Shown piece after piece: positions 1 to 64,000 of a stretch of 64,000 nt of DNA. The stretch lies in the NCBI GenBank assembly GCA_963695435.1, contig OY968788.1, positions 54,781 to 118,780 on the forward strand, in the 5' to 3' direction. The notes below the pieces were generated by a model. That model searched no databases. It worked only from the letters and a program-made list of their open reading frames with translations, and was not told where the DNA came from. The translations under genes were made by a program, and so were the position numbers. The DNA is from an uncultured bacterium. GTDB taxonomy: Bacteria; Patescibacteriota; Kazan-3B-28. The stretch's first letter is position 1. Every line of letters starts with the position of its first letter.

Positions 1-212
1 AAGTCGTTTTGGATAGTGCTTGGGGGAGATGTGCGGGCGGTGAACTTGTTGCCCAACAAAAAATTTGGATTGTTGCTGACTTTACAATTAGGAGACGCCG
101 ATGTGGAGATGGTAAGAGAAACCCTTAAAAAGTTCTTGCCAGAGGAGGCTAGTCGGGGGGAAGATACTGTGGACAAGGTTGGTCGGTTTTTTAAGTTGTA
201 ACCCGAATATAC

Positions 213-289
213 GCGCCTGTAGCTCAGGGGATTAGAGCGCTTAGCTACGGACTAAGAGGTCGGGGGTTCGAATCCCTCCAGGCGTACCA
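213..289 (+). tRNA. tRNA-Arg (anticodon ACG)
   Basis: Cloverleaf read by eye. The 7-bp acceptor stem gcgcctg/caggcgt starts with a G:U pair. The anticodon loop is cuACGga. A canonical T-arm ggttcgaatcc and an encoded CCA are present. Confidence 0.85.
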
Positions 290-8650: not shown

Positions 8651-9636
8651 CCGACCAACCCGATTTTCTTTTTGACTTCGGCAAGAGTTGGGTTAGCAAT
8701 GCGGGCAGCTTTGGCAGCGCCCGTTTTTAGGATTCGGTCGAGGAGACGGCGATTTTTCATGTAATGGTCGATTTTTTTCTGGATAGGCGCAAGAGAGGTG
8801 ACGACTAATTCAGCCAGCTCTTTTTTGAAATCGCCGTATCCTTTGCCCGCAAAATATTTTTCGATTTGGGACTCGGTTTTGCCCGAAAGCATTTGGTAGA
8901 TGGTGAGGAGATTGTACAATCCTTCCCGCTTAGGGTCGAATTTGATTGTACTGCCAGAATCGGTGACGGCTCGCATAATTTTTTTGCGGATAATTTCGGG
9001 GCTGTCGGTCAGGGCGATGTAACTCCCCGCAAGGTCGCTCTTACTCATTTTTCTACTCGGATTATCCAATGCCATAATGCGGGCACCAGTTTTGCCAATG
9101 ACGGGCTCGGGGACAATAAAAGTTTTTCCGAAACGATTGTTGAATCTCTCTGCTAGGTTGCGTGCCAGCTCAACATGCTGTTTTTGATCTTCGCCGACAG
9201 GAACGACTCCCGCTTGGTACAATAGAATGTCAGCGGCCATCAGCACGGGATAATCAAACAGTCCCACGGAAGTGTTGTCGGCGTTGCCCTTTTGAGACTT
9301 GTCTTTGTATTGAGTCATACGGGAAAGTTCGCCCATATGAGCGATGGTGTTAAGAACCCAAGCCAGCTCGGTGTGGGCGGGGACAGAAGATTGGGCGAAG
9401 ATAATAGATTTCCTGGGATCGATCCCGGAAGCTAGATAGATTGCTGTATTCAGGTAGGTACTCTCGGCTAATTCTTTCGGATCCTGTGGGACAGTAATGG
9501 CATGGAGGTCAACCACGCAAAAGATACTCTCATATTTGTGTTGAATTTCCACCCAAGGCAGGATTGCTCCGAGGTAATTACCAATGTGGATTACTCCGCT
9601 GGGTTGGATACCTGAAAAGGCGCGCTTCTTGGTCAT
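8647..9636 (-). CDS. trpS: Tryptophan--tRNA ligase
   Basis: The class I motifs HIGN (HIGH-like) and KMSKS are present in a TrpS-type architecture. Confidence 0.9.
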   Translation of the reverse strand: MTKKRAFSGIQPSGVIHIGNYLGAILPWVEIQHKYESIFCVVDLHAITVPQDPKELAESTYLNTAIYLASGIDPRKSIIFAQSSVPAHTELAWVLNTIAHMGELSRMTQYKDKSQKGNADNTSVGLFDYPVLMAADILLYQAGVVPVGEDQKQHVELARNLAERFNNRFGKTFIVPEPVIGKTGARIMALDNPSRKMSKSDLAGSYIALTDSPEIIRKKIMRAVTDSGSTIKFDPKREGLYNLLTIYQMLSGKTESQIEKYFAGKGYGDFKKELAELVVTSLAPIQKKIDHYMKNRRLLDRILKTGAAKAARIANPTLAEVKKKIGLVG

Positions 9637-36528: not shown

Positions 36529-38259
36529 ATGACGGATTTAGAGGAAATAAAGGGGAAGATTGATTTGGTCGATTTTATCGGTCGATATTTGCCGTTGAAA
36601 AAAGCGGGGACGAATTACAAAGGTTTGTGTCCTTTTCATATGGAAAAGACTCCGTCTTTTATGGTGAGCCCTGACAAGCAGATTTGGCATTGCTTTGGCT
36701 GTGGGCGGGGCGGAGATGTTTTCAAATTTGTAATGGAAAAAGAAGGAATTGGATTTGCGGAGGCCTTGCAGATGTTGGCGGAGCAGGCGGGGATTCAACT
36801 TTCTAAAGTTCCGCAGTCAGGGATTGATACTCGCAAGACTTTGATGAACATCAATGAGACGGCGGCGAGATTTTATGAAAAAGTTTTGCAGGATACTAAT
36901 GAAGGCAGAGCGGCAAAAGAATATATGGTAGGGAGGGGGATGCTGCCGGCTACATTAACGGAGTTTCGAATTGGTTTTGCGCCTAGAGGTGGGAAAGCGT
37001 TGGTGGAGTTTTTGATTCGTAAAGGTGCGAAAGAAGCGGATATTGAAAAGGCGGGGTTGGGAGTCCGTAAGGGACAATTTTTATACGATAAATTTGTGGG
37101 GCGGGTGATGTTCCCATTGTGGGATAGTCTTGGCAGGGTGGTGGCATTTACGGGACGAGTTTTGGATCCGAGTGGAATTCCTAAATATTTGAATTCACCA
37201 GAGACCCCTCTATTCCATAAAAGCGAACTGCTTTACGGGCTGCATTTGGCAAAACAGACTATCCAGCGAGAGGGACGGGTAGTTTTGGTAGAAGGGCAGA
37301 TGGATACAATTAGTTCCTATCAAGCGGGGGTGAAAAATGTGGTGGGGATTTCGGGAACGGCGCTGACGGAACAACAACTGCAAATGCTAAACCGTTACTG
37401 CAAAGAAATTGTGTTGTCGTTGGATGCGGATACTGCCGGCGGAGAAGCTACGCGTAGAGCGTTAGAGATGGCAAACAATTTTGATATGGCGATGAAAGTC
37501 GTTTTGTTAGGCGGCCACAAAGATCCCGATTCGATGATTAAGGAAAATCCTGAAAATTGGAAACGGGCGGTAGAAGAAGCAGTGCCTGTGATGGATTTCT
37601 ATTTTGATGTGGCGGCACGGAAATATAATGTTGCTAAATTAGAAGACAAGAAACAACTGACACGCGAATTGCTGTCAGTGATTACCAAAGTGAATGACCC
37701 AGTAGAACGGGATCACTATATAAAGAGGTTGGCGCGAACGGTGGACGTTGATCCGTCAATTTTGTATGACACGCTGAAAAAATCGCTGAAGCCAGCTCGT
37801 AGCTTCATGAAGCCCGTGGCCGGGGAGGCAACCGAGATGTCCCCAACTTGGCTGGAGGAGCGGGCAGTGATGCTGCCGATGTTGGCTCCCAATCTAATGT
37901 CCCAACTACTGGCGGTGGGCGGGCGGATAAAATGGGCTTCTGGACTGGCAAATACCATTTACGATGCGATGTCTTCTTGGTATACTGCCAACACAACCCT
38001 GTCAGCTGAAGATTTTTTGAAACGACTTCCCGAGCCAACTAAAACTGCTGCCTCGGAACTGATGCTAGTTTTGGAACAAGGCTATGAGGAGGTTTCTGGG
38101 GAAGATTTGGAAAAGGAACTGAAATTCTATCTTGATTTACTACTGAATCGATCAGCAACTGTCAGGAGAAATGAACTGGCAGCAGCAATCGCGGAAGCGG
38201 AAGCAAAAAATGATCAAGCAAGGGTGGCGGAGCTCCTGAAAGAACTTAATCAACTATAA
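36529..38259 (+). CDS. dnaG: DNA primase
   Basis: The zinc ribbon CPFHMEKTPSFMV...CFGCG is present, followed by a TOPRIM domain. Confidence 0.9.
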   Translation: MTDLEEIKGKIDLVDFIGRYLPLKKAGTNYKGLCPFHMEKTPSFMVSPDKQIWHCFGCGRGGDVFKFVMEKEGIGFAEALQMLAEQAGIQLSKVPQSGIDTRKTLMNINETAARFYEKVLQDTNEGRAAKEYMVGRGMLPATLTEFRIGFAPRGGKALVEFLIRKGAKEADIEKAGLGVRKGQFLYDKFVGRVMFPLWDSLGRVVAFTGRVLDPSGIPKYLNSPETPLFHKSELLYGLHLAKQTIQREGRVVLVEGQMDTISSYQAGVKNVVGISGTALTEQQLQMLNRYCKEIVLSLDADTAGGEATRRALEMANNFDMAMKVVLLGGHKDPDSMIKENPENWKRAVEEAVPVMDFYFDVAARKYNVAKLEDKKQLTRELLSVITKVNDPVERDHYIKRLARTVDVDPSILYDTLKKSLKPARSFMKPVAGEATEMSPTWLEERAVMLPMLAPNLMSQLLAVGGRIKWASGLANTIYDAMSSWYTANTTLSAEDFLKRLPEPTKTAASELMLVLEQGYEEVSGEDLEKELKFYLDLLLNRSATVRRNELAAAIAEAEAKNDQARVAELLKELNQL

Positions 38260-38280
38260 ATAGTATTTAACTGACTTTCT

Positions 38281-39957
38281 ATGGCGAGCAAAAAAACTGC
38301 TCCAAAAAAGAAAGCAGCCCCTCGCGTGGCGGGTAAACGGGCGGTGGCTCGGAAACGGGTGACCGTCGGGAAAAAGCCGGCGAAAAGTAAGCAGGTCAGC
38401 AGGTCAGCAGGTAAGCGGGCAAGTAATAAAAAAGTAGTGAAAAAAATGGCAAAGAAGAAACCGATTAGAAAACCGGCTCCAAAAAAGACCGCCCCTAAAC
38501 GGGCAGGTAAAAAACGGGTGATTAAGAAAAAGCCGGCAAAAAAATTGGTAAAGAAAGTATCAAAGAAAAAGCCGGCAAAAAAGATAGTAAAGAAGAGACC
38601 GATAAAAAAGGCTGTTAAGAAGAAACCAGCGAAGAAACTGAAGCCGAAGAAGTCGGTAAAGAAACCGTTGAAGAAGCTAGCAAAGAAAGTTGCTCCTAAG
38701 AAGGTAAGTAAAAAACGCAAATCAGAAGCAGAAGAATTGCTCGGAGAGCCAAGACCAGAAGAACCAAAACTCAAGATATTTGAGATTGAGGATGAAGACG
38801 AAATTGCCAAAAAAAGGAAACGCAAAGAATCTGGTATTGGTAAGCTCCCGGGGCCGGTAGCGGATTTGGTATCCGCCGGTAAGGCAAAAGGCTTTATCAC
38901 TCAACAAGAACTAGAGCAGGCGGTCCCGAATGTGGAAAAGCAAATCGAAATGCTTGATTTGTTGTTCCAGATTTTGATGGAAGAAGGAATTGAGGTGGTA
39001 GATGTTCGGGACGATCTGATCTGGGCATTGGCCGGGGACAGTAAGCTAAGCAAGAAAACTGAAGCCACTAAGAAAAAAATGCGGAACAAGCTGGATGTGA
39101 ATATCGATCCGCACTTGTTGGAAGATGACATCAGTGATGACTCGGTAAGGATGTATCTGAAGGAAATCGGACAGGTGCCGTTGCTTCGAGCCGAAGAAGA
39201 AGTCGCGTTGGCAAAACGAGTGGAAATGGGTGATGTGCTGGCGTCCAAACAGTTGGCGGAAGCAAACTTGCGGTTGGTTGTATCGATTGCCAAAAAATAT
39301 ATTGGCCGAGGATTGTCGCTTTTGGATTTGATTCAGGAAGGCAACATCGGTTTGATGAAAGCGGTGGAGAAATTTGACTGGCGACGAGGATTCAAATTCT
39401 CAACTTACGCGACTTGGTGGATTCGTCAGGCCATTACTCGCGCCATTGCCGACCAAGCTCGAACAATTCGTATCCCGGTGCACATGGTAGAAACGATGAA
39501 CAGGCTTTCTCGTACTCAACGGCAATTGGTGCAAGAGCTTGGGCGTGAGCCGACTCCAGAAGAAATTGCCAATGAAATGGAATTGGAAGTTGAAAAAGTT
39601 AACCACATTCTAAAGATTTCGCAGGAGACTGTATCTTTGGAAAAGTCGGTCGGTGACGAAGATGACTCTTTGCTTGGTGACTTTATTCAAGATGAAGATA
39701 GTCTGACGCCGGAAGAAGCTTCGGCTTACGAACTTCTGAAAGGTGATGTGGGCGGAGTACTTGATTTGTTGTCGCCAAGAGAGCAAAAGATTCTGAAGTT
39801 GCGATTTGGTCTTGGCGGCGAGTGGGCACACACGCTGGAGGAAGTAGGTAAAGAATTCGGAGTCACTCGTGAGCGTATTCGTCAGATCGAAGCTAAGGCA
39901 CTAATGAAATTGCGCAAGAGCAAAGACAGTAAGAAGTTGAAAGATTATTTGAAGTAA
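38281..39957 (+). CDS. rpoD: RNA polymerase sigma factor RpoD (sigma70) with a roughly 170-aa lysine-rich N-terminal extension of histone-H1-like AKKPAKK repeats
   Basis: The region 2 motif is [30 protein letters not shown]. The region 4 motif is [15 protein letters not shown]. The dnaG-rpoD order is conserved. Confidence 0.9.
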
Positions 39958-39993
39958 ATTACAATTACCGCGTCGCCATTTGGCGACGCGCAT

Positions 39994-40068
39994 TCCGGGG
40001 TAGCTCAGTGGTAGAGCGGTCGACTGTTAATCGATTGGTCGTGGGTTCGAATCCCACCCCCGGAGCCA
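39994..40068 (+). tRNA. tRNA-Asn (anticodon GTT)
   Basis: The acceptor stem is tccgggg/ccccgga with a U1:A72 pair. The anticodon loop is cuGUUaa. CCA is encoded. Confidence 0.8.
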
Positions 40069-40110: not shown

Positions 40111-40310
40111 GGTGAGGGTTTGAACCCATGCGAAGCACAAAGGGTTCGTGCATGATGCTGCTTAGTCTCCAAAGGAGACGACTATAATATTTGTTGGGTA
40201 TACCTTATTGCAGCGAATGGCGGGGCCCCACAGTAGTGGGGAAACAATTCCCACCCCACTTGGTTTGTGATTTTGGTTGGGGAAAACAATTCCCACTCCC
40301 GGAGAACTAG
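40111..40310 (+). repeat. tRNA-trailer repeat region
   Basis: It contains the hairpin motif gaacccatgcgaagcacaaagggttcgtgcatgatgctgc, which also occurs at 580-622 and as a reverse complement at 46905-46925. It also contains ttggtttgtgattttggtt, flanked by 20-bp direct repeats ggggaaacaattcccacYcc. Confidence 0.6.
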
Positions 40311-40329: not shown

Positions 40330-40944
40330 ATGAAAAATAGAAATGCTATACATTACGACAAATTGTACGCTTCAGAAAAAGTGGTTTTTGGCGAAGGCAA
40401 ACCAGAGAGTCTAGTCATTAGGGCGTTAGATCATTTGCGTTCTGGTAAGGTTTTGGATATTGGTGGTGGCGAAGGCAGGAATGCCGTGTTTATGGCGGAG
40501 AATGGTTTTGATGTAGAGGTTGTAGATGTTTCCAAGGTCGGCATAAAGAAGATTCAGGATCGAGCAAAAGAACTCGGCATCAATATCAAAACCAAAGTCG
40601 CGGACATAACTGAAATAGAATTTGGAAATTATGACATAATTATCCTTTCGTTTGTTCTGCATGTTATAAGGCGTGACAAAGCTGTGCAATTATTAAGGCG
40701 GGTTATGGAGCACACAAATCCAGGCGGGCTGAATATTGTTATAGGCTTCACTAAAAAAGGTGATTTTTTCAAGGACAACCCGAATGTTAAGAGCTATTAT
40801 CTTGATTTGGAGGAGCTCAAGAAGATTTATAGTCACTGGGAGATCATTGAATATGTGGAAAGAAATACTAAAGCTCGCCAAACAAAAACTAATGGGGACC
40901 CGATGTTCAACACGACCGCCTTTCTCTTGGCTCAAAAACAATAG
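40330..40944 (+). CDS. tehB: TehB-like class I SAM-dependent methyltransferase
   Basis: VLDIGGGEGRNAVFMAENGFDVEVVD is motif I with an acidic loop. The overall order matches TehB tellurite methyltransferase. Confidence 0.7.
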   Translation: MKNRNAIHYDKLYASEKVVFGEGKPESLVIRALDHLRSGKVLDIGGGEGRNAVFMAENGFDVEVVDVSKVGIKKIQDRAKELGINIKTKVADITEIEFGNYDIIILSFVLHVIRRDKAVQLLRRVMEHTNPGGLNIVIGFTKKGDFFKDNPNVKSYYLDLEELKKIYSHWEIIEYVERNTKARQTKTNGDPMFNTTAFLLAQKQ

Positions 40945-41068
40945 AATTATTGTAGATATATCAAATCGGGTCCGGATGGGTTCAAAAATTGGCTGTGAGA
41001 CTAGCTTTGTTAATTGCTGGTTTTTCTTCGTAAAAACGCAGCTTATACTAAAAATGTAAGGGGCGCAC

Positions 41069-41087
41069 CTTGTACAACTTGTACAAA
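41069..41087. promoter_or_regulatory. Tandem palindromic octamers TTGTACAA-C-TTGTACAA (candidate operator)
   Basis: Two perfect self-complementary 8-mers lie 15 nt upstream of GGAGGTGA and the GTG start of the next ORF. Confidence 0.4.
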
Positions 41088-41101
41088 AGGGAGGTGATAT
41101 T

Positions 41102-41845
41102 GTGCTACAGTGGACGCCATCCGAAAGGGCAACGCGAAGTCATCTTTCTCGACGATTCAAGGAACTAAAACTGGGTCTTGGAAAGCTTAAGAAAGATGGT
41201 GAGTGTGGAGATGAGAGGAAGGAGAAAGCTCGAGAGTATGTTTCAGCATTGTCTAAACTCGTTGCCTTCAACAACGAGGCTATCGGGCGCGTGGAAGACT
41301 ACATTCGCGAACAGGGTTCTTCACGGCTTGAGGAACAACTCGAGTACCATCGGATACTCTATGAAGGTGCAGGGTCGGGTTTCCGCGGGTATACGGGAGC
41401 TCACTTTAGGCACGCGGGGCGCTTGGTTCGTTTTGCTTCCCTCGACGATGGCGGTGAGTTTACCTCATCTCAACTTCGGCGGAGAAAAGCTTATCTCGCG
41501 CGCAAGCTGCTGGCCCCAATTAGGATCCCGAAAGGTAGGCCGCAGAACCTAATTCGGGTAACCAAAGACGGTCAGCGTCTGCCAACCTGCTCTGGGCAGT
41601 ACATCCGTGTCGCGGGAGAGTGGTTTGAAGTTTTGGGGCTGCCACGTATCCGAGGTGGTCACTATCACTGCAAAAGGCTTCGCTACGATCCGGATGATGT
41701 ATTTAGCGGTCAGATGCTTCATGATGTTCTGGCGGAGGAAATCGATGGCGTGTCCGTGCGACATCCCCTCGACTACTTGTTGGAACAGCCGGAGCAGCAG
41801 GAAGCTCTTTTCGGCTCTTCACTCGGCGTCGAGTTTGATCTTTAG
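41102..41845 (+). CDS. Hypothetical 247-aa protein that is compositionally atypical (GC-rich relative to its neighbours)
   Basis: A GTG start is preceded by a strong GGAGGTGA ribosome-binding site. No motif is recognised. Local GC content is clearly higher than in flanking genes. Confidence 0.5.
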   Translation: MLQWTPSERATRSHLSRRFKELKLGLGKLKKDGECGDERKEKAREYVSALSKLVAFNNEAIGRVEDYIREQGSSRLEEQLEYHRILYEGAGSGFRGYTGAHFRHAGRLVRFASLDDGGEFTSSQLRRRKAYLARKLLAPIRIPKGRPQNLIRVTKDGQRLPTCSGQYIRVAGEWFEVLGLPRIRGGHYHCKRLRYDPDDVFSGQMLHDVLAEEIDGVSVRHPLDYLLEQPEQQEALFGSSLGVEFDL

Positions 41846-41895
41846 GGGACAGGTGGTTCAATCTGTTCCCTTTTTAATTTGGGTTATTCGTATTT

Positions 41896-43296
41896 TTATC
41901 TCAACATTGCTTGGGTGGGAAATTCGTGACTAGTTTTATCCCAAGGGATTGATTGACGGTCTGATCGGAAGAAGAAATGGTAAATCGCTCGAACAGAGGC
42001 GGAGAAGTTAATGAAATTGCCGATTACATAACGGATAGGGACTAGCAATGAATTTCCAAAACCGTAAAAAACACTTACAGCTGACATTCGTAGTATTATT
42101 CGTAAGAAAAACAGAAGGGTATCAAACAAGAAAAGGTACCACAGAATAATTGGGATGTGATGGATTGGGCTAATCCCGAAGAAAAATGGCAGGATGAAAA
42201 ATGGAATTAGTACAATGTAGCCGAAGAAGTTAAGCGAGCCGGTAATTATTTGTTTGCGGTCACGAAATAGACAATATTTCATTTTGAAGTCGCCTAACCA
42301 TCCGGTTTGTTGCCAAGTTTGTAAAGCAATGCCTGTGATCCAGCGGGTTTTTTGGCGAATCGAAGCGCGGTAGTGGCGGGGAAATATTGAACGGGTAGCG
42401 ATAACTTCCCCGCGGTCGGTAAACATGGTGGCAAAGATTGTGTCGTGGCCGGTGTGGTGCAGCTCAATTGCGCTATGGTAGTCTTCCACTAGACTTTCGT
42501 CGTTGAAGACTCGTCCATGATGTTTTTCTAATGTTTCCAGAGAGGCCCGGTCGTAGGCGGTTCCTACTCCCGCAGAGGGGACAAAAGCACCGATATGTTC
42601 GCGGGTAATCATATGGCGGAGATGATTTTCGGAAAATTCGTCAGCGTAAGTCCAGTGGATCAATTCCCACCACGGCATAGAAAGTGGCAAAACGGGAATT
42701 TGCACCATATGTTTTTTCCGTTCACAAATCAGGTAGTTGAAAACGCGTAGGGAGTATGGATGAATAACATCCTCGCTGTCGTGAGTGACAATGACGCGGA
42801 AGGGTTTTTTGCCCTCGATAGTTTCTAAAGCGATAAAAGTGGAATTGAGATTGTCGGCTTTGGTGGTTGGACCGGCATTCTGGTTAACTATAACTTTCAC
42901 GTGTTCAGGGAAACGTTTTTCTAATTTTCGAGCGGCAGTAATGGTGGGTTTGTCATTTGGATAAACTCCCAAGACAATTGAATAATTTGAATATTTGATG
43001 GTTTTTACTGCGTTGTGTACCATTCTCCCAATTACAGAACTTTCGCGCCAACAGGGTACCAAAATTGCAACCCGTTGCTCTTTGTGGGGTTCGAGCGAAT
43101 GGACAGTAAAGTTGCGAATTCGGTTACGATTGAAGAAGCGGTGAATTCGCCATTTGAGGTAAAGTCCGTCAAACAAGAGGTCGTCGAGACCGCTGATTGC
43201 AAAACCGCCAGCTACGATATAGGAGAAAACTATAAAGTAGGGGTGGGCGAAAATGGACAGGAATATATTCATAGGGGAGCTCCCAGTAGTGTACAC
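41896..43296 (-). CDS. Family 2 glycosyltransferase, membrane-embedded processive type (cellulose-synthase-like)
   Basis: A GT-A fold with DSED is present. The QxxRW motif is RQKTRWITG. N- and C-terminal transmembrane helices are present. Confidence 0.7.
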   Translation of the reverse strand: MYTTGSSPMNIFLSIFAHPYFIVFSYIVAGGFAISGLDDLLFDGLYLKWRIHRFFNRNRIRNFTVHSLEPHKEQRVAILVPCWRESSVIGRMVHNAVKTIKYSNYSIVLGVYPNDKPTITAARKLEKRFPEHVKVIVNQNAGPTTKADNLNSTFIALETIEGKKPFRVIVTHDSEDVIHPYSLRVFNYLICERKKHMVQIPVLPLSMPWWELIHWTYADEFSENHLRHMITREHIGAFVPSAGVGTAYDRASLETLEKHHGRVFNDESLVEDYHSAIELHHTGHDTIFATMFTDRGEVIATRSIFPRHYRASIRQKTRWITGIALQTWQQTGWLGDFKMKYCLFRDRKQIITGSLNFFGYIVLIPFFILPFFFGISPIHHIPIILWYLFLFDTLLFFLRIILRMSAVSVFYGFGNSLLVPIRYVIGNFINFSASVRAIYHFFFRSDRQSIPWDKTSHEFPTQAMLR

Positions 43297-43359
43297 CTAT
43301 GGGGTTTATCGCTAAAGAGGCGGTGGCTTTTGTGTGATAATAGGGACGAAAGGAGTTAT

Positions 43360-43581
43360 ATGAAGAAAATATTTCTTTGGGGCGGGTTAGTTGGCTTTAT
43401 CGTCTTTTTCCTGTTGGGATTTTTGGCGGGGGCAACTAATGGTCCTGATAATCAGCCGGTTTTTGCGTTAGTCTATGGTACTAACCAGGTTCTCTGGGCA
43501 TTCCTTGGTCTTGTTTTCGCAATTCTTTTCATCATCGGTTTAGTGATGGTGATTGTTGGTGCGATAAAGAGACGCAAATAG
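43360..43581 (+). CDS. Small (73 aa) two-transmembrane membrane protein
   Basis: AAGGAG precedes the ATG. The start MKKIFLWGGLVGF and the end IIGLVMVIVGAIKRRK are recognisable. It is a paralog of the next ORF. Confidence 0.55.
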   Translation: MKKIFLWGGLVGFIVFFLLGFLAGATNGPDNQPVFALVYGTNQVLWAFLGLVFAILFIIGLVMVIVGAIKRRK

Positions 43582-43637
43582 TAGGGGATAGATAATTCTC
43601 TTAGATATTAGAATGACTGTTTGGTAAAAGGATTTTT

Positions 43638-43853
43638 ATGAAAAGAACATTTCTTTGGGGTGGGTTGATTGGTTTTGCCGTATTTTTTCTGATAGGACTT
43701 CTAACCAGCACATCAAACAATGGACCGTCCATATTACCTCTCACTTGTGATTCAAAAGGTTTGATATGGGTTCTCTTTGCTCTTGTTGGCGCTGTATTTT
43801 TCCTGATTGGCTTGGTGATGGTGATTGTTGATGTGATAAAAAGACGCAAGTAG
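43638..43853 (+). CDS. Small (71 aa) two-transmembrane membrane protein (paralog)
   Basis: MKRTFLWGGLIGFAVFFLIGLL...LIGLVMVIVDVIKRRK is about 60% identical to 43360..43581. Confidence 0.55.
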   Translation: MKRTFLWGGLIGFAVFFLIGLLTSTSNNGPSILPLTCDSKGLIWVLFALVGAVFFLIGLVMVIVDVIKRRK

Positions 43854-44825
43854 ATGGCAAAAGGGTTTTGGGGAAAATTGAAGCGGCCGATTTTGGCATT
43901 GGCGCCAATGGCGGATGTGACTGACCCGGCTTTTCGTCGGCTGATTGCTAAATATGGCAAACCGGATGTGATGTGGACGGAATTTGTTTCGTGTGATGGG
44001 TTGTGTTCACCAAAAGGCAGATCGGTGCTGTCGGCGAGTTTGAAATATGTTTCGGCAGAACGACCGATTGTGGCGCAGATTTTTGGGAGTAAGCCAGAAA
44101 ATTTTTATCAGTGCGCAAAGTTATTGAAAAAACTAAAGTTCGACGGTATTGATATAAATATGGGATGCCCGGATAGGAAAGTGGAAAAACAAGGCGGCGG
44201 GGCAAAGCTAATGCTAAATCCTGTTCTTGCGAAAGAAATTATTCGACAAACTAAACGGGGGGCAGGCGGGTTGCCGGTTTCGGTAAAAACTAGAATCGGC
44301 TACAACAAAAAAGATTTGGAAGGCTGGATAAGGGCTCTAGTAGATGCAGACCCCGATGTTTTGATTATTCATGCCCGCACTCGTAAGGAAATGTCGAAAG
44401 TGCCGGCGGATTGGAAGGTGATTAAAGAAGTAGTGAAGTTGGTAAAAAAATCAGGTAAAGATATTTTAGTAATCGGTAATGGTGATGTGAAAAATTTGGA
44501 AGATGCGAAGAAGAAAATAAAACAGTCTGGAGCGGATGGCGCGATGGTAGGGCGGGGGGTGTTCGGTAACCCGTGGTTTTTCAATAAAAGAAAAAAGAAA
44601 GTTAGTTTGAAGGAAAAGCTAAGGGTTTTGGTAGAGCATGCCAGGCTCTTTGAGAAGGTTTCGGGAAAGAAAAACTTTGCCATCATGCGGAAACATTTCA
44701 AAGCTTATATCGTGGGGTTCAATGGGGCGGTGAGTTTGCGGGCGAAATTGATGCGGGCAAACAACTCGAGAGAGGTGGTAGCCATTCTTAGGGCAAAATA
44801 CCCCAAAATCAGCTTCCAGAGGTAG
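43854..44825 (+). CDS. dus: tRNA-dihydrouridine synthase
   Basis: LAPMADVTDPAFRRL...NMGCP is the Dus active-site region. A TIM barrel is present. Confidence 0.85.
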   Translation: MAKGFWGKLKRPILALAPMADVTDPAFRRLIAKYGKPDVMWTEFVSCDGLCSPKGRSVLSASLKYVSAERPIVAQIFGSKPENFYQCAKLLKKLKFDGIDINMGCPDRKVEKQGGGAKLMLNPVLAKEIIRQTKRGAGGLPVSVKTRIGYNKKDLEGWIRALVDADPDVLIIHARTRKEMSKVPADWKVIKEVVKLVKKSGKDILVIGNGDVKNLEDAKKKIKQSGADGAMVGRGVFGNPWFFNKRKKKVSLKEKLRVLVEHARLFEKVSGKKNFAIMRKHFKAYIVGFNGAVSLRAKLMRANNSREVVAILRAKYPKISFQR

Positions 44826-46347: not shown

Positions 46348-46423
46348 GGGCCCGTAACTCAGTGGTTAGAGTAGTCCCCTCATAAGGGATTAGTCCTTGG
46401 TTCGAATCCAAGCGGGCCCACCA
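46348..46423 (+). tRNA. tRNA with CAT anticodon, probably tRNA-Ile2 (lysidine tRNA) or an elongator Met
   Basis: The acceptor stem gggcccg/cgggccc is fully paired. The anticodon loop is cuCAUaa. The D-arm resembles E. coli tRNA-Ile2. CCA is encoded. Confidence 0.75.
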
Positions 46424-46556
46424 CGGCGTCGAAATGGCTTCGCTCGACGCGCGAGCAAAACAGGTTTGCTCGGCTAATGAAGCTCAGCATTTCTCCTTTC
46501 AAAATTACAAACACTTCGTTGGTTTACAATTTTGGTTAGAGACAAAGACTTAGTAT
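46424..46556 (+). repeat. tRNA-trailer repeat element
   Basis: It begins cgtcgaaatggcttc as at 1284. It shares gctcggctaAtg and cagcatttctcctttc with that copy and carries the variant motif ttggtttacaattttggttag. Confidence 0.65.
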
Positions 46557-46565
46557 GTTTTCAAG

Positions 46566-46907
46566 ATGAAGAAGGCGATATCATATCTTTTTTATTTCAA
46601 AGCGCTGGTTTGGATAACTCTAGCGTTCTTTTATTTGAGTCGCCATCTTAGTCCTAATGAAAATGTGGTCTACCAAATTGTTGCTGGTTTACTGTTTGTG
46701 AATGGTTCTGCATACGCAGTTTTGGGATATCTTTTGAGACAAAAAGTTCGGTGGGTATTTTGGCTGTCGCTTGTTTTGGTGGCGGGAAATATTTTGCTGA
46801 CAATTACTGACCAAGTGGGCTGGGTGGATTGGATATCTTTGGCTACTGATTTGGTTCTGGTAGTTTTGTTGCTTTGGTACAGAAAGGAATGGATTCCATC
46901 AAAATAG
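46566..46907 (+). CDS. Hypothetical 113-aa membrane protein (3-4 transmembrane helices)
   Basis: It is an ORF with hydrophobic segments and lies between two convergent tRNA genes and their trailer repeats. Confidence 0.4.
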   Translation: MKKAISYLFYFKALVWITLAFFYLSRHLSPNENVVYQIVAGLLFVNGSAYAVLGYLLRQKVRWVFWLSLVLVAGNILLTITDQVGWVDWISLATDLVLVVLLLWYRKEWIPSK

Positions 46908-46914
46908 TGGCATC

Positions 46915-47042
46915 GTGCGCGGACTCAAACCAAAATCACAAACTAACGAAGTGTTTGTGATTTTGAAAGGAGAAATAACGAGACCCAAAAGCAACCCCGA
47001 GCCTGTCGAGGGCGTTAGCGTAAAGTCGAGTTTATTTCGACG
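46915..47042 (-). repeat. tRNA-trailer repeat element (minus strand, behind the initiator tRNA)
   Basis: The reverse complement reads atttctcctttcaaaatcacaaacacttcgttagtttgtgattttggtttgagtccgcgcacgatgccac. It forms an inverted repeat with 46480-46556. Confidence 0.65.
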
Positions 47043-47118
47043 TGGTTGCGGGGGTGAGATTCGAACTCACGACCTTCAGGTTATGAGCCTGACGAGCTAG
47101 CCACTGCTCTACCCCGCG
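47043..47118 (-). tRNA. Initiator tRNA-fMet (anticodon CAT)
   Basis: A C1xA72 mismatch is present (5' cgcgggg, 3' ccccgca + a + cca). The anticodon arm ucaggcuCAUaaccuga is E. coli tRNAfMet-like. Confidence 0.8.
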
Positions 47119-47152
47119 AGCCAATGTTAGCAATTCAGCTCATATCTGTCCA

Positions 47153-47217
47153 CCCCGTAGAAGAAATTTAATCGCGCTTTGCGCACCAGTCGAAGACATT
47201 AAATTTTCTCTACGGGG
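47153..47217. repeat. Conserved long palindromic hairpin (20-bp arms ccccgtagaagaaatttaat / attaaattttctctacgggg), copy 1
   Basis: The same arms, with a different loop, occur at 63603-63679. On the minus strand it immediately precedes a candidate promoter for the initiator tRNA (TGGACA, 17 nt, TAACAT). Confidence 0.6.
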
Positions 47218-47227
47218 TCCACCCCTA

Positions 47228-47653
47228 TCAAGCGACTTCGTGCAAACCGAGTATCAATCTCCACCATTTTTCGGGGTTGGTTGGTTCCTTTGGAACGGTT
47301 TTTGTTTGGTCTTGGATGTTACCTTCTGTAAATCTTTCAATGTCTTCGTTGGGAATTATCAGCACAGTTTCTCCAACTTTCTGGTAGTTCAGTTTTTCCC
47401 TTGCTTCCTTATCTTTGAAAGCATCTGTTTGGCGGTAGGCGATTAGATTTTGCAGATATTTGTTGTGTAATTTGAGGTCAGCGTTTTCCTGTCTTAGTTG
47501 AGTCAGCTCTTTATCTATTTGATAATTTTGCCAAATTGCTTGAATGGTTGAAACTACCATATATACCAAAAGGATTGCCCCCATGGTCATCAATAGTCTC
47601 GCACGCAATTCCTTGCCCTGCGGTAACTTAATTTTTCCTGATAGCTTGTTCAT
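47228..47653 (-). CDS. ftsB: FtsB/DivIC-like septum formation initiator (short N-terminus, one transmembrane segment, coiled coil)
   Basis: LRARLLMTMGAILLVYMVV is the transmembrane segment. A Q/L-rich coiled coil follows (LTQLRQENADLKL). The start is placed at MNKLSGK; the ORF track's TTG start would overlap the upstream tRNA. Confidence 0.6.
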   Translation of the reverse strand: MNKLSGKIKLPQGKELRARLLMTMGAILLVYMVVSTIQAIWQNYQIDKELTQLRQENADLKLHNKYLQNLIAYRQTDAFKDKEAREKLNYQKVGETVLIIPNEDIERFTEGNIQDQTKTVPKEPTNPEKWWRLILGLHEVA

Positions 47654-47658
47654 AGTTT

Positions 47659-47733
47659 TGGTGCCAGCGACAGGATTCGCACCTGTGACCAATGGCTTAT
47701 GAGTCCACTGCTCTACTGCTGAGCTACGCTGGC
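47659..47733 (-). tRNA. Elongator tRNA-Met (anticodon CAT)
   Basis: The acceptor stem is gccagcg/cgctggc. The anticodon loop is cuCAUaa. The variable loop and T-arm ggtcacaggtgcgaatcc are near-identical to E. coli elongator tRNA-Met. CCA is encoded. Confidence 0.8.
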
Positions 47734-63708: not shown

Positions 63709-63910
63709 ACTCACTAGAGTTGCATTAATTTTAAAGCTAGGTCGAGGCTATAAAAGCTAAAGGGATTCCGGTTGCCGGAGTCTATCTTTTATTTACCCCT
63801 CCTAGGGCTTTGAGGCAGCTCCTAATCAGTACTTTTACAACCAGAGAGTACTTAGAGAGCAAATAGTGAATTCAAGAATAAAATTCCAGAAGTGGAATAA
63901 AAATATACTT

Positions 63911-64000
63911 TTTTGAGAGTTTGATCCTAGCTCAGGATTAACGCTGGCGGCATGCCTAACACATGCAAGTCGAATGGCCCGCAAGGGTACCATGGCGAAC
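63911..64000 (+). rRNA. rrs: 16S ribosomal RNA, 5' end (partial; continues beyond the window)
   Basis: The sequence tttgagagtttgatcctagctcaggattaacgctggcggcatgcctaacacatgcaagtcgaa matches the universal 16S 5' region (the 27F primer site). Confidence 0.9.

Follow-up and report, generated by a model that had tools for sequence, protein, structure and literature searches.

The open reading frame (ORF) at 41102-41845 of the 64-kb stretch of DNA analyzed here (the window) is a genuine, fast-evolving protein-coding gene, limited to one lineage of the Patescibacteria (CPR). We think it probable that this is an old, lineage-restricted CPR gene whose high GC content is largely driven by the amino acids it encodes, whose upstream palindromic dyad is a one-off event private to this genome, and whose control region is the leader in which that dyad lies.

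RESULTS

A coding gene with few relatives

The preliminary description had reported a 247-aa frame with a GTG start and a strong Shine-Dalgarno (SD) sequence, and both are present (Table 1). An SD match of at least 8 nt is found in only 3 of the 51 ORFs of the window, the target included, and most ORFs have 4 nt or fewer; hence, the target's ribosome-binding site is unusually strong for its genome. When the window was compared with the orthologous locus L001, the target gave a pN of 0.245 and a pS of 0.736 (saturated), while the adjacent gene dus gave 0.092 and 0.664. These values show purifying selection on a gene that evolves about three times faster than its neighbors. The intrinsic terminator is placed between the target and the convergent GT2 gene (stop codon ending at 41896), and its sequence is conserved 3' of the L001 ortholog and of a gene remnant in L007. 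The target would form a monocistronic unit, served by a -10 box (TTATACT) and a terminator of its own.

Among 5.8 billion clustered proteins, we found two close relatives that align end to end, P0002 (59% identity) and P0003 (44%). Six further relatives, more distant or partial, came from a profile search across 1.84 billion representatives. The family thus amounts to about eight relatives among 1.8 billion representative proteins, none of them annotated, and in this sense the earlier label of orphan is accurate. The two intact orthologs lie on metagenome contigs. GTDB species genomes held no further orthologs, JGI metagenome contigs yielded nothing beyond a twin of L002, and neither viral contigs nor PHROGs contained a relative; the sequences of the broader alignment, A2, had diverged too far to serve as seeds for DNA scans. 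The target is surrounded by core genes (Table 1). In GTDB species genomes, the nearest dus genes are 90 to 91% identical and come from metagenome-assembled genomes (MAGs) labeled Patescibacteria, "Candidatus Saccharibacteria," and Paceibacterota, which assigns the window to a CPR bacterium.

Table 1. Features of the target gene, its leader, its predicted protein, and its neighborhood (positions in the window unless residues are given)
Feature	Position	Strand	Remarks
dnaG	36529-38259		
rpoD	38281-39957		Primary sigma factor, 558 aa
tRNA-Asn(GTT)	39994-40068	+	ARAGORN and Rfam; one gene lies between it and the downstream target in the window, L001, and L002
TehB-like methyltransferase gene	40330-40944		
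Putative -10 element, TTATACT	41043-41049	+	Promoter role inferred
Purine block, AAGGGG	41058-41063	+	AGGG invariant in three orthologs (alignment A4)
Leader block, ACCTTGNACA	41067-41076	+	Contains anti-SD-like ACCU(U)
Tandem duplication, (CTTGTACAA)x2	41069-41086	+	TRF: period 9, 2.0 copies, 100% match
Palindromic octamers, TTGTACAA-C-TTGTACAA	41070-41077 and 41079-41086	+	15 nt between second copy and GTG
Dyad half-site word, TTGNACAA			
SD sequence, GGAGGTGA	41090-41097	+	4 nt 5' of GTG
Target ORF	41102-41845	+	247 aa, GTG start
Arg-rich five-helix N-terminal domain	Residues ~6-137		AlphaFold2 model
SH3-like beta-barrel	Residues ~150-220		AlphaFold2 model
Acidic C-terminal tail	Residues 226-247		Disordered, hydrophobic-ended
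Intrinsic terminator	41844-41877	+	11-bp stem, then T-run (terminator scan)
GT2 glycosyltransferase gene, NfrB-like	41896-43296	-	Convergent with the target
dus	43854-44825		Followed by genes for an RRM protein, a DUF378 protein, and an RluB-like pseudouridine synthase

A resident gene that some relatives are losing

In the window, L001, and L002 alike, rpoD is followed by tRNA-Asn, a variable gene (a TehB-like, DUF5655, or DAGK gene), and then the target. In L001, dus directly follows the target ortholog, and the neighborhoods of the distant homologs in L003 and L005 likewise include DUF378 and RRM genes. At positions 9471 to 9939 of L007, we found a frameshifted, 5'-truncated remnant of the 3' part of the target, with the conserved terminator intact; the 64-aa protein P0004 represents the final stretch of the pseudogene that is still open. 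The remnant is flanked by dus and by a 257-aa ORF of membrane-transporter appearance. In L008, the transporter-like 257-aa ORF abuts dus and the target is absent. The target is also absent from L006, where the GT2 gene is present (90% identity) with a different gene beside it. The conserved synteny, the remnant in L007, and the absences from L006 and L008 point to an ancestral dispensable gene that is being lost rather than to a recent arrival. We conclude that the target was already established between rpoD/tRNA-Asn and dus before the divergence of the sampled relatives and that some of them are now losing it. Judged by this pattern, the gene is dispensable and occupies a variable stretch of the chromosome.

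Several other features of the locus were recorded. The approximately 150-aa N-terminal extension of RpoD (38281-38740) is extremely rich in Lys, Ala, and Pro and resembles histone H1, with KKPAKK-type repeats; it accounts for an AT-skew spike (0.375) at 38001-39000 and for a 39-nt tandem repeat at 38527-38610. A perfect inverted repeat at 39970-39989, one of the 20 counted below, directly follows the rpoD stop codon. Between tRNA-Asn and the TehB-like gene lie two fragments, at 40238-40257 and 40280-40310, the second of which agrees at 13 of 14 positions with TCCCACNCCCGGAG, from the 3' end of tRNA-Asn. The fragments look like leftover attachment-site copies of past integrations at this tRNA. 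The GT2 gene falls below the curated cutoff of every NCBIfam equivalog (320 versus 1170 bits for the model of c-di-GMP-activated NfrB); present in L006 (90% amino acid identity) and absent from L001, L007, and L008, it is another variable gene. Just 5' of dus are tandem paralogs, at 43349-43581 and 43627-43853, which encode small membrane proteins of about 70 aa each; they share 77 to 78% DNA identity, and each has its own AAAGGA ribosome-binding site. The first of them has probably been over-extended in the 188-aa ORF listed at 43015-43581. Three tRNA-Met(CAT) genes lie within 1.4 kb (46348-47733), one on the plus strand and two on the minus strand, an arrangement kept in L006, L007, and L008. 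The L007 contig has runs of N within a 777-aa ORF, and the window closes (63909-64000) with the initial 92 nt of a 16S rRNA gene.

GC content largely follows the protein sequence

The target was described as visibly richer in GC than its surroundings, and it is: at 53.2 to 53.3%, against 46.2% for the window, it ranks first among 55 ORFs (z of 2.5) and exceeds 99.7% of 744-nt sliding windows, and its flanking genes stand at 40.0% and 44.4%. Is this the mark of recent import? The main site of the excess is the first codon position (GC1 of 65.3%, rank 1 of 55), and GC3 is ordinary (52.4%, rank 12 of 55, z of 0.9). Arg makes up 11.3% of the protein, compared with 5.1% in the rest of the window, and Gly, Glu, and Leu are also enriched. 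Given the target's amino acids and the mean synonymous usage of the window, a GC content of 50.0% is expected, against the 53.3% observed. Amino acid composition therefore drives over half of the excess of seven points, and the leftover is 3.2 points (z of 1.6). Only one of 51 ORFs is less typical in synonymous codon usage than the target, whose log-likelihood (z of -1.9) is still inside the range. Compared with the other ORFs of the window, the target stands out in total GC and, to a degree, in codon usage, but not in GC3.

The orthologs show the same offset. Their GC contents exceed those of their flanks by 4.5 to 6 points (50.1 versus 44.8 in L001, 51.7 versus 45.5 in L002, and 42.4 versus 37.9 in L005), and the offset is, on this comparison, a long-standing property of the family. 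We conclude that the high GC content is largely a by-product of a protein rich in Arg, Gly, Glu, and Leu, that the remainder is a modest synonymous bias, and that it is probably no mark of recent import.

A constrained leader

Alignment A4 of the three orthologous leaders contains four conserved blocks, in the order TTATAYT, AGGG, ACCTTGNAC, and GGAGGTGAT. The -10-like box is TTATACT in L001 and TTATATT in L002, and it lies 17, 17, and 14 nt from the leader block in the window, L001, and L002, respectively. A simple sigma-70 scan did not report TTATACT, since its -35 is poor (TTTTTC). The leader block occurs once per ortholog, as ACCTTGCACA at 1700-1709 of L001 and as ACCTTGGACA at 1507-1516 of L002. 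By a hand count on A4, the window and L001 leaders are about 75% identical over 53 aligned positions. Because this identity is kept while synonymous sites in the gene are saturated (pS of 0.736), we regard the leader as being under constraint, and cis-control of some kind through it is likely for the same reason.

The SD, GGAGGTG(A/G)T, is found in all five homologous loci, each time before a non-ATG start (GTG, GTG, TTG, TTG, and TTG), and it is complementary to the 16S rRNA 3' end over 9 to 10 nt. The more distant loci L003 and L005 have a different leader that lacks ACCTTGNACA and carries a GGCCUC block in a similar place. The real control region would be the constrained leader as a whole: the -10 box, AGGG, ACCTTGNAC, the perfect SD of 9 to 10 nt, and the non-ATG start. 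Most likely it sets translation initiation, with a very strong SD offsetting a weak start codon. The upstream ACCU(U) might pair with the SD; such SD/anti-SD pairing would be weak, because the leaders fold no more stably than shuffled sequence (z of -0.72 to +0.22). From the alignment, we propose that the leader may either tune translation initiation or serve as a binding site.

Other roles for the leader fared poorly. A structured RNA (a riboswitch, a thermometer, or a known leader family) was rejected: Rfam gave no match, even at an E value of 1 or less, the fold z scores were insignificant, and no covariation was seen among three sequences, too few for that measure. A regulon was likewise discarded, as neither ACCTTGNACA (12 matches with at most 1 mismatch versus 13 expected) nor the dyad is enriched within the window. 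A leader peptide from the TTG at 41070 would be out of frame and is unconserved, and the equivalent ATG in L001 abuts the purine block. The leader at 41043-41097 is superficially like lambda and Gateway att cores (TTATACTAA, and ACAAC-TTGTACAAAA versus attB1 ACAAGTTTGTACAAAAAA), and a literature search for TTGTACAA returned only Gateway attB primer sequences. We take the likeness as coincidence and not as vector contamination, because the same flanks occur in independent metagenome contigs.

The octamer dyad is a 9-nt tandem duplication

Two perfect palindromic octamers, TTGTACAA-C-TTGTACAA, had been noted 15 nt upstream of the start codon and read as an operator. The octamers are there, forming a perfect 8-1-8 dyad that begins 20 nt past the TTATACT box and ends 3 nt before the SD. 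However, the second copy of CTTGTACAA corresponds exactly to a 9-column gap in L001 in alignment A4. L001 and L002 each have a single, non-palindromic copy of the element (L001, ACCTTGCACA, with a single TTGCACAT; L002, ACCTTGGACA, with a single TTGGACAA). The octamer pair is one 9-nt tandem duplication of the leader element ACCTTGNACA, private to this genome. On this comparison, it is best read as a one-off slippage duplication, which would merely add 9 nt to the length of the leader.

The octamer is not enriched in the window either: it occurs three times versus 1.2 to 1.9 expected, the third copy lying at 8912 within a coding ORF. The proposed search for further dyads that might define a regulon turned up none: the 17-mer had no other match in the 64-kb window with up to 3 mismatches, and 204 kb of related loci, in which 4.4 copies were expected, contained no TTGTACAA. 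Perfect inverted repeats with arms of at least 8 nt and spacers of at most 4 nt number 20 in the window versus 5.7 expected from Markov-shuffled sequence, approximately 3.5 times as many, so an inverted repeat like the dyad is unexceptional here. Three sites in the window (four overlapping start positions) hold two-copy 9-nt tandems versus 1.55 expected, approximately the chance frequency. When TTGTACAA was considered as the -35 of a second promoter, the spacers to -10-like hexamers, measured by hand, were 11, 13, and 20 nt and ran into the start codon, and we rejected this candidate. We know of no regulator box among the Rex, FNR/CRP, TnrA, CopY/BlaI, DnaA, and Fur types that fits the dyad in sequence or spacing.

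Could the recent duplication nevertheless have created a functional palindrome, or an RNA hairpin (UGUACA-ACU-UGUACA), that lowers expression in this genome only? The palindrome is perfect, the 6-bp hairpin is seen in the predicted minimum-energy fold, and the 8-1-8 dyad, flanked by the -10 box and the SD, is placed as a repressor site would be. In addition, GTAC words are scarce (116 versus 156 expected in the window, and 381 versus 444 in the related loci L001 to L020), so that two retained copies are mildly notable; TGTACA is also low in the lineage, and the scarcity itself suggests avoidance of a GTAC-type restriction site. Against these points, the dyad is known from one genome and has no comparative support, the leader fold is no more stable than shuffled sequence (z of -0.72), and 9-nt tandems of this kind arise at about the rate expected by chance. 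We consider a new operator of this sort unlikely.

The original reading went further, proposing a gene recently gained by horizontal transfer and tightly repressed by a dimeric regulator bound at TTGTACAA-C-TTGTACAA. In its favor are the highest GC content of 55 ORFs with atypical synonymous codon usage (z of -1.9), patchy presence among close relatives, a location one gene from tRNA-Asn with tRNA-3'-end-like fragments downstream of that tRNA, and the perfect 17-nt dyad between the -10 box and the SD. Each half of the proposal meets contrary evidence. Against the operator stand orthologs that have one non-palindromic copy and no dyad, the failure of the dyad to recur in the window (at up to 3 mismatches) or of TTGTACAA to appear in 204 kb of related loci, and the lack of any gene with a helix-turn-helix or other regulator domain (Pfam, NCBIfam) among the target's neighbors. 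Against recent acquisition stand normal GC3 (z of 0.9), a GC excess that is over half driven by amino acids and is matched by an offset in orthologs only 44 to 59% identical, synteny kept in three genomes, and the decaying remnant in L007, which points to loss and not gain; moreover, there is no integrase or transposase among the neighbors, and no att or other repeat brackets the gene. We therefore give this reading little credence, and of the claim of tight regulation only the weaker form survives, namely, that a constrained leader makes some cis-control likely. Some foreignness of the target retains residual support, as all but one of 51 ORFs have a more typical codon usage (z of -1.9 for the target); because this goes together with the highest total GC, the gene may descend from an ancient transfer into the CPR lineage.

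A basic protein with a predicted SH3-like barrel

The statement that the protein has no recognizable motif was borne out by searches of Pfam, NCBIfam, PHROGs, PADLOC, and PDB (sequence and profile), none of which gave a match. Pfam and NCBIfam likewise gave none for seven relatives (P0002, P0003, and P0005 to P0009). The family does have motifs of its own (IPxGRPQN, GQ[YF]I, YHC, and AEEIxxVSxxxP), and only E212, I214, and P222 do not vary among the nine sequences. From these nine sequences, AlphaFold2 produced a model with a mean pLDDT of 80.6 and a pTM of 0.58, comprising a helical N-terminal domain, a barrel, and a tail (Table 1); the acidic, hydrophobic-ended tail is common to the distant homologs. 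The pI of the protein is 9.2, and that of the N-terminal domain is 9.9. Foldseek against PDB gave a best E value of 0.15, with HspQ and Sm proteins as the top local matches, and a domain-only model gave weak SH3-like structural matches. The recommended remote-homology and structure searches thus yielded a few unannotated relatives and a confident model, but the fold matches are weak and generic. KOW/Tudor/Sm-type barrels often bind nucleic acid, and from the model we would guess that the protein binds nucleic acid or a partner protein. A MazF/Kid-type toxin was rejected, as neither a PemK/MazF profile match nor an adjacent antitoxin gene was found.

Perhaps the protein binds its own leader? 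A basic helical and SH3-like protein might recognize AGGG...ACCUUGNAC...GGAGGUGAU, as DNA or RNA, and feed back on its own expression. Conservation of the leader against a saturated background, the basic character of the protein (including 11.3% Arg), its predicted KOW/Tudor/Sm-type barrel, and the family-wide combination of a strong SD and a weak start codon are all compatible with such a loop. On the other side, the leaders of L003 and L005 differ and are without ACCTTGNACA, and the fold matches are weak and generic, and we regard autoregulation as unlikely.

A broader form of this idea is that an undescribed, very rare, and apparently all-Patescibacteria family, in which an Arg-rich helical domain is joined to a KOW/Tudor-like barrel and an acidic, hydrophobic-ended tail, acts on the transcription or translation machinery and regulates itself through the leader. 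Membership restricted to the Patescibacteria is established for the close relatives, and for the distant ones it rests on shared synteny. The machinery role is drawn from the target's position just downstream of dnaG-rpoD and beside tRNA- and rRNA-modification genes, and the protein's own synthesis would be controlled through AGGG-N4-ACCUUGNAC, the 9- to 10-nt SD, and the non-AUG start. We hold this to be a long shot.

Finally, the reading of the target as a chance open frame in a GC-rich stretch that encodes no protein, which the lack of database annotations and family matches and the long shadow ORFs common in GC-rich DNA (e.g., 41178-41552 and 41607-41933) might encourage, is effectively refuted by the conservation data, namely, full-length orthologs at 59% and 44% identity with pN far below pS, barrel motifs common to more distant relatives, a confident AlphaFold2 model (pLDDT of 80.6), and a conserved SD and terminator.

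DISCUSSION

The old, lineage-restricted CPR gene that we favor carries two cautions. A GC spike can arise largely from amino acid composition, and a striking double palindrome can be a one-off 9-nt duplication; comparative data are needed before either is read as transfer or as an operator. Only two points about the target are unusual: its family is extremely rare, and a non-ATG start is consistently preceded by a strong SD. The genomes of CPR bacteria are small and, as far as is known, encode few regulators. A conserved cis-element before a basic barrel protein would be a reasonable entry point to gene control in the CPR or to factors associated with its machinery.

How does the target compare with known systems? 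The nearest counterparts of its predicted barrel, by weak and generic structural matches, are SH3-like barrels of the KOW, Tudor, and chromo-barrel kinds, as in the KOW domains of Spt5/NusG, the C-terminal Tudor domain of PcrA/UvrD, HspQ/YccV, and Sm proteins. In contrast to the KOW, Tudor, and SH3-like families, the target and seven relatives are without a sequence-profile match. The helical half resembles the CsoR/RcnR repressors in an equally generic way, since designed helical bundles, Mediator Med11, and coiled coils score the same Z. We rejected a CsoR/RcnR-type metal-sensing repressor: the target has no Pfam CsoR match and no conserved Cys/His metal ligands, and the lone cysteine of its N-terminal half, Cys34, is unconserved in the orthologs.

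Dyad operators between the -10 element and the SD serve as roadblock sites for repressors, as do the 7-1-7 boxes of the Fur family and the TACA-N2-TGTA boxes of CopY/BlaI. The target's 8-1-8 inverted repeat is like these in being sited downstream of a -10-like box. It is unlike them in that it is unconserved, unrepeated in the window, without a cognate regulator gene nearby, and the product of a 9-nt duplication; the spacing between TACA and TGTA is 3 nt, not the 2 nt of CopY/BlaI boxes.

The locus also recalls tRNA-integrated islands: the target lies one gene past tRNA-Asn, in a variable stretch, with tRNA-3'-end fragments nearby (40238-40310). Unlike the arrangement of such islands, however, the fragments precede the TehB-like gene rather than bracketing the target, and no integrase is present. 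Here the target is the conserved element, and it is the gene between the target and the tRNA that varies.
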